Positions 18,001 through 24,000 of a DNA stretch of 32,597 nucleotides are shown piece after piece (within the stretch, counting starts at the first letter, position 1; the number at the start of each line of letters is the position of its first letter). The position numbers were made by a program. The DNA comes from an uncultured bacterium (GTDB lineage: Bacteria; Chlamydiota; Chlamydiia; Chlamydiales; SM23-39): assembly GCA_964400755.1 (NCBI GenBank), contig CAYNVX010000002.1, forward strand, positions 1 to 32,597. The letters run 5' to 3'.

Positions 18001-21000
18001 GATTATGTTTTTGATGGGATAAAAGGAAATTATAGGGAAGAAGATTTAATTAATCCTTTAAATGAATATGGAAGACAAAGAGTTCAATTAGAAAAAGAAG
18101 CATATAAGATATGTAAAGGGCAGTGTCTTATTCTTCGGATGAGTAAAATTTTCACTATAAATGTTGATAACACTAGTTTTTTTAATGAAATAGCAAAGAA
18201 TCTTTTGAAGGGAATGATAGTAAGAGCTGCTTTTGATCAAGTTTTTTCTCCAATTCTAATAGATGATTTGATTACAGCTGTTTTGGCTTTACAAGAAAAA
18301 AACGCTAGCGGTATATTTCATGTGTGCGGCCGTGATGCAATTAATCGTTGTGAAGTAGCATTACAAATAGCAAAATTGTTAAAGATTGATAGTGAGCTTA
18401 TTGAAAGAATTTCTTTAGATTCCTTGAATGAATCATTTGTAAGACCGAAAAACACTTCAATGGATTATTCAAAATTAGCCAATACAATTTCTTTTAATCC
18501 AAAAGCATTCAAGGATTGTATAGAAAAATTTGTAGATAAGTATTCTATTCATAATAAATACAAGAGTAATCTCCTTGATAATTGCATAATTTAAACCACC
18601 ATTCCCATTCTTCAGGTGTAAAAAAGCATTCGCATGTTAATTGCCAGTATAATAAATTAGTTTTTTCTTCATCATTTCTATAACTGTCAACAATAATATA
18701 TTTATTTTTACCAACACGGTTTATTTCTCGGAGTGCTTTTTCTAAATCAGGACATAAAAGATTATGTAAGACATTGATTGAAATAATCAGATCAAATTCG
18801 TTGCTAGCAAATGGTAAATTTGCAGCAGTTCCTTGTTGTAAATATGGCTTAACTTCTTCTTTCGCATGATCAATGGCATAGCTTGAAATATCGAGTCCTT
18901 GTATATTTAAATCAGGAATTTCTTTTATTAATTCATATAACAGAAATCCTTTTCCACAACCTACGTCTAATATTTTTTGTTTAGCTTCTAGTTTATAATG
19001 TTTTATCAAACGTTTGGCTAAAATATTCCATCTTCCATCATATTTATAACCACCATAACCAAATTTTCTATCACCATCCCAATAATCAAAATCAAATTTT
19101 TTTGCTCTCCTAGCGGCTTGTGCTTTAGGATAATCATTGACTCTAGAAAGATAATCTCTTTTTGTTTTAGTGTGAATATCTTCTATAAAATCTATATAAC
19201 TCATATTTCCTCTTAAAAAACATGATTAACTGTTTTTAATTTTGTGTTTAATAATTTTTAATTTTGAATAAAGCCTAGGAAATTTAGTTTTTAGTAAGGT
19301 TTTTAAATTGACGTTCGTATGTGATAATTTTATCCTTTTATTTAGAAGCTTTAAAAAAAGCTGCGCTCTTTTCTTAGTAAAATTAATGACCTTTTTTTTG
19401 AAAGGAATATAGTGGTGGAGTTTTTTCTGATAAAGAGGCCAAATATAATTTCTGTAAAAAGCGTTTACATAAGGTTTGGAAACAAAAGTAATGATTTTAT
19501 CAGACTGTCTTTCTTTACGTTGCCACTCTTTACATTTTTTATAGGTAGAAGATAAAAGATAAATTTTTGATTGTGCAAACAATATATGACTATACAAGAG
19601 CTGATCTTTTGCAAAATAAAAAACTGTTTTTAGTTTGTTGGTATAGTGTGTACCAAGGTTTATTCTTCTAATAGTTGTTAATTCAAATAAAACAGCCTCG
19701 TCTGAATTTTCAAGAACTTCCCAAGTTCTTATGTCTGGACAAGCATTATTTACAAAATCAGCATCTATTGAAATTTTGCATGTATAATTTCGTTTTTGAG
19801 GCCAAATAAAAATAGGATGTAAATGAAATCCTCTTACTAGAATATTGTTTTTATCAAGATTCCAGCCCAATATTGCTGGCCAAGTGTAAATTGTTTTAGA
19901 ATAATCCCAAAAAGTATCGTATGTTAGTTGGTGAAAATGAGATAGCGCTTTTTTTACTAAATTTCTTGGTTTAATATCAAATAGTTCAGAAGTTTTTATT
20001 GAATTAATAAAGTTTTCTTTATTTAATCTAATAGCTGTGCCCACTAAAAGACGTTTTTTATTAGAAAGACTAGTGCATATTTTTTCAAAAACATTGTTAG
20101 ATAATATAATATCAGGGGCTAAAAAAACCATAGCTGCATTTTCTTTACTAGCACGCAAAATAATATCATTATGACAAGCAGTCATTGTAGCATGATCATG
20201 ATTTCTAAAAAAAATATCCATGTTGATAAATTCAATATTTACCAAAGAGGATATTTCATGGAATGTTGAAGATTGTAGGATAGTTTGTTTATCAGAGTTT
20301 GTGGTATATATTTTATATTCAGCAGGATAATTATTTTTTTTTAAATATTGAAAATTTGATAGTTGACTAGATAGAGTATATAAAAAAGTTTTAGTATATT
20401 CTTTGCCATATATTACATTAGTAATAAAAAGTTTTGGATTCATAATACTCACTTAGTTGTTATTTAAAAATATTATCTTTAAATTTTTTTAATTTGAAGT
20501 ACCCATTAGGGAATTGTTTTTTTAATTTATTTAGAATAGAGGCTCTTAAAGAAAAATTCCGAATCTTATAAAGCAATCGAAAAAGAAATTGTGTTTTTGC
20601 AGAAATTTCTATGTTAATATTTATTTTGTTTTTAAAATTAATAAATTTACCTCTATTAGGATTGTAATAAATATATTTAAATTCTTTTAAAGGCCAAATA
20701 AACGTTCTATAAAATTTATTATTATATTTTTGGGAAAGAAACTTAATAATTTTGTCTGACTTTCTTTCTGTTTTTAGCCAGGGGTAAGATTTTTTATAAT
20801 CAGTGGATAAAATATAAATTTTTGATTGAGCAAAATGCATATGACATCGATAAAGATAATTATGAACGAAGGAATGAGCGACCTTAATTTTATGCTGCGA
20901 ATATGCTCCTTCATAATTTCTTTTTTTTGTCGATAATTCGAATAAGACACCCTCATCAGAATGGGTTAGAATTTCCCATTGTTTTTTATCAGGGCAGCTA

Positions 21001-24000
21001 TAATTAATAAATTCGGAATCAAAAGTACCTCGACAAAGAACCTTTTTTTTCACTGGCCATACAAATATTGGATGAAGATGAAATCCTCGTACTAATATAT
21101 TGGTTTTATTAAGGTGTAAACATATTAAAGCTGTCCAGTGCCAAATTTTAGGACCATGATCCCAAAAAAAATCATAGCTCATATGATGTAGGTAAGGAAG
21201 AGCTTTTTTTACTAATTCTCGAGGGTTGATATTAATTAATTCAGATGGGTTATGTGAGGTGATAAAATTTTCTTTGTAAAGTCTTAGTGCTGTTCCTACT
21301 AATAATCTTTTTCCATTAGAAATACTGGAGCATATTTTTTCAAAAACATTATTTGAAAAAATAATATCAGCTAATAAAAATACAATTACTGCATCCTCTT
21401 TATTTGCTTTAAGAATTATATCATTGTGACAGGCAGTCATTGTTAGATGAGGTTCTTTTCGAAAAAATTGTGTTATATCAATGAATTCTACCTGTATCAG
21501 AGTATTTAATTTCTGAAATGCGTTAGAATTGAGCATTATTTTTTTATCTGTTTCAGTTGTATAAATTTTATATATAGCTGGCCAGGAATTTTTTACTAAA
21601 TACTCCAGATTGGCTAATTGACTTGGTAAAGTATAGAGGAAGGTTTTTGTATATTCTTTACTAAAAATAATATTTGTAAGATGTAACGTTTGCATAAAAA
21701 CGAAAGGTTTTTTTATCAATTTTAATTTTATACTATAATTTGATTTATTAATAAACGGTATTATTTTTACAAAACAAAGATGGTCCTGTTTTTACAAAAT
21801 ATTATGCAGCAATTTTGTATAATTGAAAAATAGTTGCGTTTTTTTTTTACCTATGTAACTATTCTGATAATATTTTTTTTGGTAGGTTAAAACATGAAAA
21901 TACTTAGGGTTTTTTCTGGAGTTCCTTTTGTTCAAGAATGTGAAAAGTTTTTTATTTTTCATAAATTATCTCAAGATAAAATTACTTATGACGAAGCTAT
22001 AGAACATTATAAAAACAATGATCTATACAATAGATATTCTTTCTCTCAATGTTTCAAGCAGTTGAAATATGATTGTTTAGAAATAATGATAGATATTGTT
22101 TCTTTACAAAAAAAGTGGTGTAAGGAGAATAATCAAAAGATAGAGTTTTCTGAAAATGATTGGATAATGACTGTTTTTGAAAAACAACTTGAAGTATTCA
22201 AACCGGATATTATTTTTTTTGATCGCAGTAGTTCTTATCTCCCTTTTTATTATATTGATAAAAAAGCACTGAAACAGAAATTTCCTTTTATCAAAATATT
22301 AGCAGGATTTTGGGGGAGCTCTTTAGTAAGAAATAATTTTGATTATGAACAGTCTTTAAAATTAATTTCGAATGTCGATGTTTTGTTTTGTCAAGATAGA
22401 TCTTCTAGGAAAGTAGAAAAAAAAATTTCAGGTGTTAAAGCATTTTTGTTGCCTCATTGTTTTGATATTTCAAATTCTATTATAAAAAAATTATCATATA
22501 AAAAAAATTATGATTTTACATTCTTGGGAACTTCAGGTTTTAAAACTCCAAATCTTAAAAATAGATATTTTTATCTTTCTTCTTTATTAAAAAAGAAAAT
22601 ATTGATGGCTTGGCTGAAAGAAGAAACGAAGGGTTTGGAAAATACAAAAATGAATTTTTCATTTAAAAAATATTATGATAGATTTTTTTTAAAACTAAAT
22701 CGGTTTAGAACATATGAACAGTTGGAAAAAAGATGGAAATATCAACTTCCTTTGACTTATAAATTCTCCAAAAGAACTAAGCCATTTCTTATTGGAGAGG
22801 ATTATTATGAAATGCTTTCTCAGTCAAAGATAACATTTAATATACATGGTGATTTTTCTGGACATATAGGAAATATGCGATGTTATGAAGCAACAGGAAT
22901 AGGATCATGTATGTTGGTTGATAAACCCAATTTAATTAAAGATTTATTTCTTCCTGATGAAGAAGTTGTTTGTTATAAATCTATTGGTGAAGCTGAATCA
23001 AAAGTTAAATATCTTTTAAAAAATCCTAAGATTTGTGAAGAAATTGCTAGAAGAGGACAAACTAGAACATTAAAAGATCATACTATGAAAAATAGAGCGG
23101 AAATAATGGATAATATTTTTCGTAAGCTAATAAATTAGTTTACAATTTATTATTATAGCTTAACTTTTTTTTAAGACTAAAGTATATCCATTATTTATAT
23201 AGGAATTAATTTTTAAAAATTTGATCGTTTTTTTTGTTAAGTCTAATATCCAATTTACAAATGTTCTATCTGAATATATATTTTCTAATATTGGATAAGC
23301 ATAGTGGCGATAAATAAGTTCAACAATAATGAATTTACTAGAAATATTTAATGCAGATCTATTTTCGCTATTTTGGCATAAATAACTAATTATTACGCCG
23401 GGATTATATGGCTTAACATGGCTTAAATCTTCATAAAATTTTTCCCAAAGCAAAGGGGCGCTTATTATTAAAACCCCTTCGGGTTCTAACACTCTATTAA
23501 GTTCATTTAGGAAAATATATAATTCTTCATGATATAAATGTTCTATCATATGAGAAGAATGTATGAAATTAATAGACTCATCTTTAAAAGGAAGCGGGTT
23601 AGGTGCTCTATATTCTAAGATTTTGTAGTTTGTATTTTTAAGATTTTTTAAGGTTTCTTTGTTGCCGTCTAATAAATAAGTATTAGGATATGTATGTAAT
23701 TGTAAATATTTAGCAAATGCTCCATTGCCAGAACCAATATCTAAAATATATTTATTTTGGTTGTCAGGGAGATATTTTTTTGCAATATCATAAAAAGGCT
23801 GTCTTTCCATGGTGCAATATTTTTTGTTTATCTGGTTTTCTATGTGGAACTTTTTCAAAGAAATCACAAAACCTCAAAAAATTTAATTTTTACATAAATC
23901 TAAAAGTTTAATAAATATATGTAAAAGAATTTCCAAAAAAAATAATAAGAAGTGATTAAAAAAATTGCTTAATAAAAAATCATGTTGTAAATTTTTTTTA

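Follow-up and report, generated by a model that had tools for sequence, protein, structure and literature searches.

What do the two adjacent minus-strand genes at the center of a chlamydial nucleotide-sugar locus encode? The locus lies in 32,597 nucleotides of DNA from an uncultured member of the Chlamydiales (GTDB SM23-39; assembly GCA_964400755.1, contig CAYNVX010000002.1, positions 1 to 32,597 of the forward strand), referred to below as the window. The two genes, paralogs A and B, form a unit with a class I S-adenosylmethionine (SAM) methyltransferase gene, MT2, and an earlier note on this DNA had singled them out as the best candidates for novel glycosyltransferases (GTs) or polymerizing enzymes. 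Homology searches, structure prediction and a survey of gene neighborhoods lead us to the view that A and B are probably, though by no means certainly, two active, peripheral-membrane GTs of an undescribed GT-A-like family, which would extend a lipid-linked glycan with a modified sugar.

Two paralogs of a large, unnamed family

A and B align end to end in BLASTP, with 212 of 407 positions identical (52%), 69% positives and an E-value of 7e-147. The estimate in the earlier note that about half of the positions agree was accurate, and every colinear block quoted there from the two minus-strand open reading frames (ORFs) falls within this alignment. In the ORF list A occupies 19226..20452 (408 aa, GTG start) and B 20460..21719 (419 aa, TTG start). 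Both starts were judged to be a few codons early because the orthologs begin with MQPKLF... or MQTLH..., and because the database entry for B (P0005) is 411 aa long. The real start of A is likely the ATG at 20443, which is preceded by AAGTGAG and gives a protein of 405 aa; that of B is likely the ATG at 21695, giving 411 aa. Residue numbers of A are counted throughout from the 408-aa ORF. B, A and MT2 follow one another on the same strand, separated by 16 and 21 nt (the B-A gap is 7 nt when measured from the listed GTG). A strong ribosome-binding site, AAGAGGAAAT-ATG, precedes MT2, and a scan found no terminator-like site between the three genes. The order B-A-methyltransferase is kept in the nearest relative of the locus, which is largely syntenic and belongs to the Chlamydiales metagenome-assembled genome (MAG) PL23a_bin.60 (contig JANQFC010000052). 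The three-gene unit proposed earlier is upheld.

Both copies are under purifying selection. A shares 72% amino acid identity with its ortholog P0001, at 0.167 nonsynonymous (dN) and 1.31 synonymous (dS) substitutions per site and a dN/dS of 0.13; the corresponding values for B and P0003 are 71%, 0.183, 1.12 and 0.16. The close homologs fall into an A clade (A, P0001 and P0002) and a B clade (B, P0003, P0004 and P0006), with P0007 outside both, which indicates that the duplication is older than several lineages and that each copy has since been maintained by selection. Legionellales operons also carry two copies, which are divergent, but the window pair are not the counterparts of these: A and B are both nearer to the methyltransferase-adjacent Legionellales copy than to the second one. 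This explanation was ruled out, and the window pair represents a separate, lineage-specific duplication.

Neither paralog matches any Pfam or NCBIfam model, even at E≤1, and the core domain of distant members is likewise unmatched in these libraries. Searches of PDB sequences with family profiles gave chance-level matches only (E≥0.27); MakA, SPT4 and KARI were rejected as relatives for this reason. The earlier note, which could assign the pair to no family that it knew, is thus borne out. An exhaustive profile search of 1.84 billion representatives recovered 2,897 at E≤1e-3, 1,917 at ≤1e-10 and 680 at ≤1e-30, which have in common a core of approximately 320 residues. A word-indexed protein search, with 8 and later 17 relatives, had badly understated the family. 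While the family is unnamed, the paralogs are not orphans, since their relatives are numerous and distributed over many phyla.

The host genomes, almost throughout MAGs, include those of Gemmata, uncultured Chlamydia-like bacteria, Dehalococcoidia, Chloroflexaceae, Acidobacteria, Alphaproteobacteria, Legionellales, Burkholderiales, Myxococcota, Margulisiibacteriota and Binatia. Neither the protein search nor the cluster look-up returned a source name for any member. RefSeq labels those on a Solidesulfovibrio plasmid "hypothetical protein," and UniProt labels a phage member "Uncharacterized protein." The viral structure library BFVD contains a full-length member from an uncultured Caudovirales phage (A0A6J5PWU5, 342 aa), which matches with an E-value of 1.6e-24, a target-normalized TM-score (TMt) of 0.81 and 18% identity. 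Nothing directly equivalent to the family, or to the gene cassette described below, was found in literature searches.

Predicted fold, conserved residues and basic tails

The first AlphaFold2 model of A, derived from a 9-sequence alignment, had a predicted local distance difference test score (pLDDT) of 58.7; it was confident for the first ~170 residues and poor past residue 175. A second model, built on an alignment of 71 diverse members with approximately 25% identity to A (alignment A2), reached a pLDDT of 93.4 and a predicted TM-score (pTM) of 0.86. It displays an N-terminal α/β/α Rossmann-like domain of GT-A topology. Foldseek comparison with the PDB returned 42 matches at E≤1e-3, nearly all of them GT-A glycosyltransferases with a probability of ~1.0, including AvpGT, ColGalT1, LH3, LARGE1, WrtF, glycogenin, xylosyltransferase 1 (XT1), CHSY3, RmlT, cellulose (BcsA) and hyaluronan synthases, and mannosylglycerate synthase (MGS). 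Against BFVD the best match was the full-length phage member, and the others were again GT-A transferases. The GT-A likeness suspected in the earlier note is consequently borne out for the N-terminal half and not for the remainder: residues 175-320 are confidently modeled and do not align with GT-A structures in the PDB.

Neither A nor B matches the Pfam models Glycos_transf_2 (PF00535, GT2) or Glyco_transf_8 (GT8) at E≤1, and the family domain was not recruited when jackhmmer was started from GT2 domains. Nor do Pfam or NCBIfam link them to the sugar-1-phosphate nucleotidyltransferases, whose GxGxR signature is missing after strand β1, where the family consensus reads VVWGxxY. We regard the proteins as candidate founders of a new GT family in the GT-A fold class, apparently outside GT2, GT8, the nucleotidyltransferases and the curated families queried.

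Three residues, D114, H174 and D230, are invariant across alignment A2, and a further twelve (G16, N33, T50, P113, G132, R142, L165, F209, H210, P213, P218 and S250) are at least 90% conserved; an alignment of 167 domains gives the same picture. Within the consensus FLxPDxI, D114 follows immediately on strand 107-110 (β4), the position at which the DxD motif of GT-A enzymes is expected. It is the Asp of the acidic APDII/LADII segment to which the earlier note had drawn attention. Candidates for the catalytic base (xED) and the C-terminal His of a complete GT-A core are H174, H210/H212, D230, S250-D251 and H289. Both paralogs retain every invariant residue, N33, T50, R142, H210, P213 and S250 among the conserved ones, and the motif FHLHP. 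At a few positions that are 80-94% conserved B departs from the consensus (G to S20, P to A117 and W to L201), as does A (W to Y15, P to S28 and G to K132).

The C-terminal tail of A (residue 321 to the end) contains 23 Lys or Arg and no acidic residue, for a net charge of +23; that of B has a net charge of +20. The Lys-rich tails described previously are indeed basic in both proteins, although the basic stretch measures approximately 90 aa and not 60. The tails are modeled as long helices (pLDDT 67-90) with a helical hydrophobic moment of ~0.5, and neither contains a hydrophobic segment of transmembrane strength, the maximum 19-residue Kyte-Doolittle averages (KD19) being 1.1 and 1.56. Across the family, 64 of 73 single-domain members carry a tail charge of at least +5, with a median of +8 over ~55 residues. 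The proposal that the tails anchor the proteins to the membrane fits this family-wide basicity, but any such attachment would be peripheral at most. The predicted helices are most simply read as a peripheral anchor, electrostatic or amphipathic; an alternative is that they serve in dimerization.

Domain fusions, gene neighborhood and layout of the window

Among the 159 top proteins, 21 (~13%) have two or three copies of the domain fused in one chain; in several of the two-copy proteins the first copy gets a far better score than the second. The domain is also found fused to GT2 (with or without TPR), to TPR alone, to a sulfotransferase and to an APH-type kinase. Loci often carry more than one copy, with two to seven seen. 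The biggest array seen, in an Acidobacteria MAG (L012; CANNDT010000008, 9803-21197), consists of seven copies in a row, partly as overlapping ORFs, and adjoins SIS, HAD, transaldolase and HldE-like genes.

A Pfam census of 134 ORFs flanking family members at 30 loci identified glycan-biosynthesis neighbors, of which the commonest were 21 class I methyltransferases, 13 SDR epimerases/dehydratases, eight RmlD-like reductases, seven ABC-2 permeases, six ABC-2 ATPases, five E1/transketolase pairs and five GT2 proteins. The genes of the window were then searched against 29 family loci. MT2, the most strongly conserved partner of the family, has homologs at 15 of them (E down to 1e-88), the HldE-like protein also at 15 (E-values reaching 1e-211 when the closest relative is set aside) and the methyltransferase MT1 at 16. 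Homologs of the α and β subunits of a thiamine pyrophosphate (TPP)-dependent E1 enzyme were found at 11 and 14 loci, of the GFO oxidoreductase at 10, and of the nucleoside diphosphate (NDP)-sugar dehydrogenase at nine. This cassette, to which several SDR epimerases also belong, is shared by Legionellales, Acidobacteria, Gemmata, Chloroflexi and others (loci L004-L034). In the window it is split into two halves (13655-18594 and 23965-32590) around the paralog pair.

The compact Legionellales operon L018 (1719-19783) reads Epi-Epi-HldE-GFO-dehydrogenase-Epi-MT2-MT1-FAMILY in its first half and Epi-E1a-E1b-FAMILY-unknown-Wzm-Wzt-RmlD in its second, where Epi is an epimerase gene. The only transferase candidates in this operon are the two family copies and one ORF of unknown function, directly ahead of the ABC-2 exporter Wzm/Wzt. 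That ORF (16110-17270, 386 aa), which separates the second family copy from Wzm, is matched by no Pfam or NCBIfam model and is another candidate pathway enzyme. The candidate transferase or polymerase role put forward in the earlier note is in keeping with such operons, as it is with the fused copies, the GT2, TPR and sulfotransferase fusions and the arrays of up to seven genes.

Two other settings differ from this one. Plasmid pDCAR1 of Solidesulfovibrio carbinolicus (L035; NZ_CP026539.1, 106235-111892) encodes two members of 666 and 661 aa, in which the family domain forms the C-terminal half and the N-terminal half shows weak TPR matches (E 4e-4 to 2e-3, below the Pfam cut-offs). They flank a TIGR04372 glycosyltransferase, and their neighbors include a transketolase-like gene, an MT2 homolog (6e-71), radical SAM genes, an RmlD-like gene, pseB, pseC and a Maf/MptE-like gene. 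This setting suggests that the acceptor may differ between lineages. The family could be studied in S. carbinolicus, which is available in culture. On JGI contig Ga0366829_1000034 (3300033143; L002) a close homolog from the A clade (64% identical) and another member, of 815 aa, sit among four sulfotransferase genes, an adenosine phosphosulfate (APS) kinase gene and methyltransferase genes, which suggests a sulfated glycan in that relative.

The features of the window are listed in Table 1. As previously stated, its only recognizable glycosyltransferases are the GT9 and Glyco_trans_1_2 (CgeB-like) proteins. The long run of nucleotide-sugar genes comprises SIS (GmhA-like), HAD (GmhB-like), transaldolase, SDR epimerase and HldE-like nucleotidyltransferase plus kinase genes, together with those for the GFO oxidoreductase, the NDP-sugar dehydrogenase and two SDR epimerases/dehydratases. 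The CgeB-like gene has a homolog in the close Chlamydiales relative only. MT3 also has one there; elsewhere it shows only a weak match (5.8e-06) to a Solidesulfovibrio plasmid ORF, which is the MT2 homolog. The GC content of the window is very low (25-33%). Promoters are presumably situated in the intergenic region upstream of B, although a promoter scan that included this region found 23 sites against 26.8 expected, i.e., no excess over chance.

Table 1. Principal features of the window (positions counted from its first nucleotide)
Feature	Positions	Strand	Remarks
GT9	11321..12397		
TPP-dependent E1 alpha and E1 beta-like pair	13655..15704	+	
Methyltransferase MT1	15705..16403	-	
Radical SAM/SPASM enzyme	16590..17657	+	
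RmlD-like NDP-sugar reductase	17635..18594	+	
Class I SAM methyltransferase MT2	18545..19204	-	Last gene of the three-gene unit
Paralog A	19226..20443	-	Predicted GT-A-like core, residues ~1-320; basic helical tail, 321-end
Paralog B	20460..21695	-	Same architecture as A; D118, H178, D234 and FHLHP kept
AT-rich divergent intergenic region	21720..21893		174 bp, between paralog B and the CgeB-like gene
Glyco_trans_1_2 (CgeB-like) glycosyltransferase	21894..23138	+	Pfam assignment
Methyltransferase MT3	23160..23867	-	
Nucleotide-sugar gene run	23965..32590	+	Most of the genes co-occur with the family across phyla

Several details of the layout deserve mention. The convergent RmlD-like and MT2 genes overlap by 50 nt at their 3'-ends as listed (18545-18594). 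The RmlD-like ORF has 319 aa in the window but 295 in the relative; part of the difference may be due to the TTG listed as its start, where it overlaps the radical SAM gene. Two short ORFs in different frames, 12455-12832 with a CxxxCxxC motif and 12856-13440 with a SPASM domain, resemble the halves of one radical SAM/SPASM gene, and the region appears to be either a frameshifted pseudogene or a sequencing error. Comparison showed that the halves are not orthologs of the intact radical SAM gene that occupies the corresponding position in the related MAG. The HldE-like protein (26924-28489) reverses the domain order of PRK11316, the NCBIfam model for HldE, with a cytidylyltransferase-like domain at its N-terminus (residues 39-138; model positions 319-455) and a PfkB kinase at its C-terminus (235-493). 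Its scores all fall below the equivalog cut-offs, from which it may be that its substrate is not the standard heptose.

Farther from the paralogs the window encodes a 717-aa YjbH-family protein beside housekeeping genes (3036-5189; Pfam "Exopolysaccharide biosynthesis protein YbjH," E 5e-140), a 725-aa protein recognizable only in its C-terminal GreA/GreB domain (676-2853), a double-length ThyX of 548 aa with two Thy1 stretches (5238-6884), and two adjacent Tyr/Trp permeases. The long GreA, the double ThyX and the paired Tyr/Trp permeases, at low GC, are typical of chlamydiae and, with a Chlamydiales MAG as the nearest relative of the locus, suggest that the window probably stems from an environmental member of the Chlamydiales.

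Proposed role and its alternatives

How, then, might A and B work? The N-terminal Rossmann-like half would bind a nucleotide sugar, as in Leloir-type enzymes, with the lone Asp (D114 in A, D118 in B) at the DxD site. The family-specific C-terminal half, with H174, D230, FHxHP and (D)SD, presumably forms the acceptor and catalytic site. The Arg/Lys-rich helical tail would hold the enzyme to the cytoplasmic face of the inner membrane. The flanking genes could supply the donor through heptose-type activation, oxidation and epimerization, a TPP-dependent E1 enzyme and methylation. Together with the downstream MT2, the pair would then extend a lipid-linked glycan by two residues, successive or alternating, of a modified, methylated sugar. 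Fused two-copy proteins in other phyla suggest that A and B may act next to each other or form a heterodimer.

A number of observations weigh against this proposal. The structural match spans only 140-160 N-terminal residues, with query-normalized TM-scores (TMq) of 0.22-0.27 and Foldseek E-values of 1e-4 to 1e-3; it is the N-terminal nucleotide-binding half that is GT-A-like, and residues 175-320 are without a solved counterpart. NDP-sugar pyrophosphorylases, whose fold is related, are present among the matches (VTC1-KJC2, 8yre, 6.8e-4; G1P thymidylyltransferase, 3hl3, 1.2e-3). An hhalign comparison of the family with the GT2 alignment is not significant (probability 12%), and the placement of P113-D114 on the GT2 DxD segment by the sole stretch that it aligned is not evidence of homology. 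The canonical DxD is absent, there being a single Asp, and the DxD, C-His and catalytic-base roles of D114, H210 and D230 are putative. No characterized protein belongs to the family. Within the window no initiating transferase, flippase or ABC transporter is apparent. Lastly, the Lys-rich tails could in part mirror the AT-rich genome (25-30% GC); base composition alone is insufficient to account for them, as members from GC-rich genomes also possess basic tails.

The proteins could share a GT-A-like, nucleotide-sugar-binding fold without being GTs, and instead be sugar-1-phosphate nucleotidyltransferases or other enzymes that modify nucleotide sugars or transfer phospho-sugars. The pyrophosphorylases among the structural matches, the one Asp in place of DxD, and the many loci in which the family is tied to sugar-modifying enzymes and not to classical GTs all speak for such a function. 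We nevertheless consider it unlikely, given that the consensus after β1 is VVWGxxY and not GxGxR, that the cassette already includes an HldE-like nucleotidyltransferase, and that GT-A transferases dominate the hit lists from both PDB and BFVD; arrays, fused double copies and fusions to GT2, TPR or sulfotransferase also suit glycan-assembly modules better. There is a small chance that A and B are GTs that act on a surface protein such as flagellin or pilin instead of a lipid-linked polysaccharide. TPR fusions recur in the family, and the pDCAR1 members, among pseB, pseC and the Maf/MptE-like gene, resemble part of a flagellin-glycosylation island. The window paralogs, on the other hand, are devoid of TPR, and the window contains no flagellar, pse or Maf genes. 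The Wzm/Wzt genes at the end of the Legionellales operons and the recurrent ABC-2 neighbors point to polysaccharide export, and the basic tails to a membrane-bound acceptor.

It is also conceivable, but improbable, that only one paralog is catalytic and the other a degenerate copy with a scaffolding or regulatory function in a heterodimer with it. Each is off-consensus at a few well-conserved positions, and several fused proteins have a weaker second copy; but the three invariant residues and FHLHP are found in both A and B, purifying selection on them is similarly strong, and the two clades remain distinct in several lineages. That the ORFs are nonfunctional, chance products of AT-rich DNA might be thought from their listed non-ATG starts and the very low GC content. 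This notion is refuted by the conservation data, and we assign it practically no weight: an ATG occurs a few codons downstream in each case, the orthologs are under purifying selection, there are ~2,900 related clusters, and the model reaches a pLDDT of 93.4. Two membrane-associated GTs acting on a lipid-linked glycan remain our preferred explanation.

Comparison with known systems places the family near, but not within, several groups of GTs. One of the top structural matches is the GT2 enzyme WrtF of Rhizobium tropici (PDB 9omn; PMC12595478), which has a role in O-polysaccharide assembly and shares the Rossmann-like nucleotide-binding half (Foldseek E 2e-4, ~140 residues). WrtF has a reduced DxD, G-A-D, of which only the last Asp is retained, and is metal independent (PMC12595478). 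This parallels the x-P-D114 of the family; a lone Asp there need not preclude activity. By comparison with GT2 in general, the family shows no detectable sequence homology, its residues ~175-320 do not align, and it carries a long basic helical tail. Also among the best structural matches are ColGalT1/LH3 and retaining GT-A enzymes of the GT8 type (glycogenin, the LARGE1 xylosyltransferase domain and the UGGT catalytic domain). The aromatic residue after β1, the Asp after β4 and FHxHP (H210/H212) some 100 residues farther on presumably resemble the DxD...H metal site of GT8, which we treat as a lead only. The family differs from this type in lacking a Glyco_transf_8 match, in having one Asp and not DxD, and in its low TM-scores.

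In organization the closest parallel is with two-module polymerases such as LARGE1, K4CP, CHSY3-CHPF and the WbbM/WbdA-type O-antigen synthases, where two GT modules, fused or adjacent, cooperate. The fused double and triple copies, the adjacent pair in the window and the ABC-2 links at several loci are reminiscent of these, whereas the modules here are copies of one domain that could be matched to no CAZy family; the likeness is one of organization only. There is precedent for the discovery of GTs in such loci: GT99, GT102, GT103 and GT137 were founded from ABC-transporter-dependent O-antigen loci, where unannotated proteins proved to be transferases (PMC11231755). GT99 and GT137 are Kdo (3-deoxy-D-manno-oct-2-ulosonic acid) transferases with GT-B-like or novel folds, and bear no sequence or fold relation to the present family. 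As new GT families still emerge from comparable loci, the finding is credible and useful, and not startling.

A more far-reaching version of the proposal, which we advance tentatively and with more doubt than conviction, is that this new GT family transfers an undescribed branched, methylated, heptose-derived sugar made by the cassette that Chlamydiales, Legionellales, Acidobacteria, Planctomycetes, Chloroflexi and others have in common. The family flags a conserved and unstudied nucleotide-sugar pathway comprising an HldE-like protein, an NDP-sugar dehydrogenase, a GFO oxidoreductase, an E1-type TPP enzyme and two methyltransferases. Should A and B be true transferases, ~2,900 "hypothetical" clusters in at least ten phyla would gain a function, and it would be possible to define a candidate GT family in which D114, H174, D230 and FHxHP are the putative catalytic residues. 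Pathogenic Chlamydia have a truncated, Kdo-only lipopolysaccharide; some environmental chlamydial lineages would, if the proposal is correct, carry the genes for a decorated, complex surface polysaccharide.

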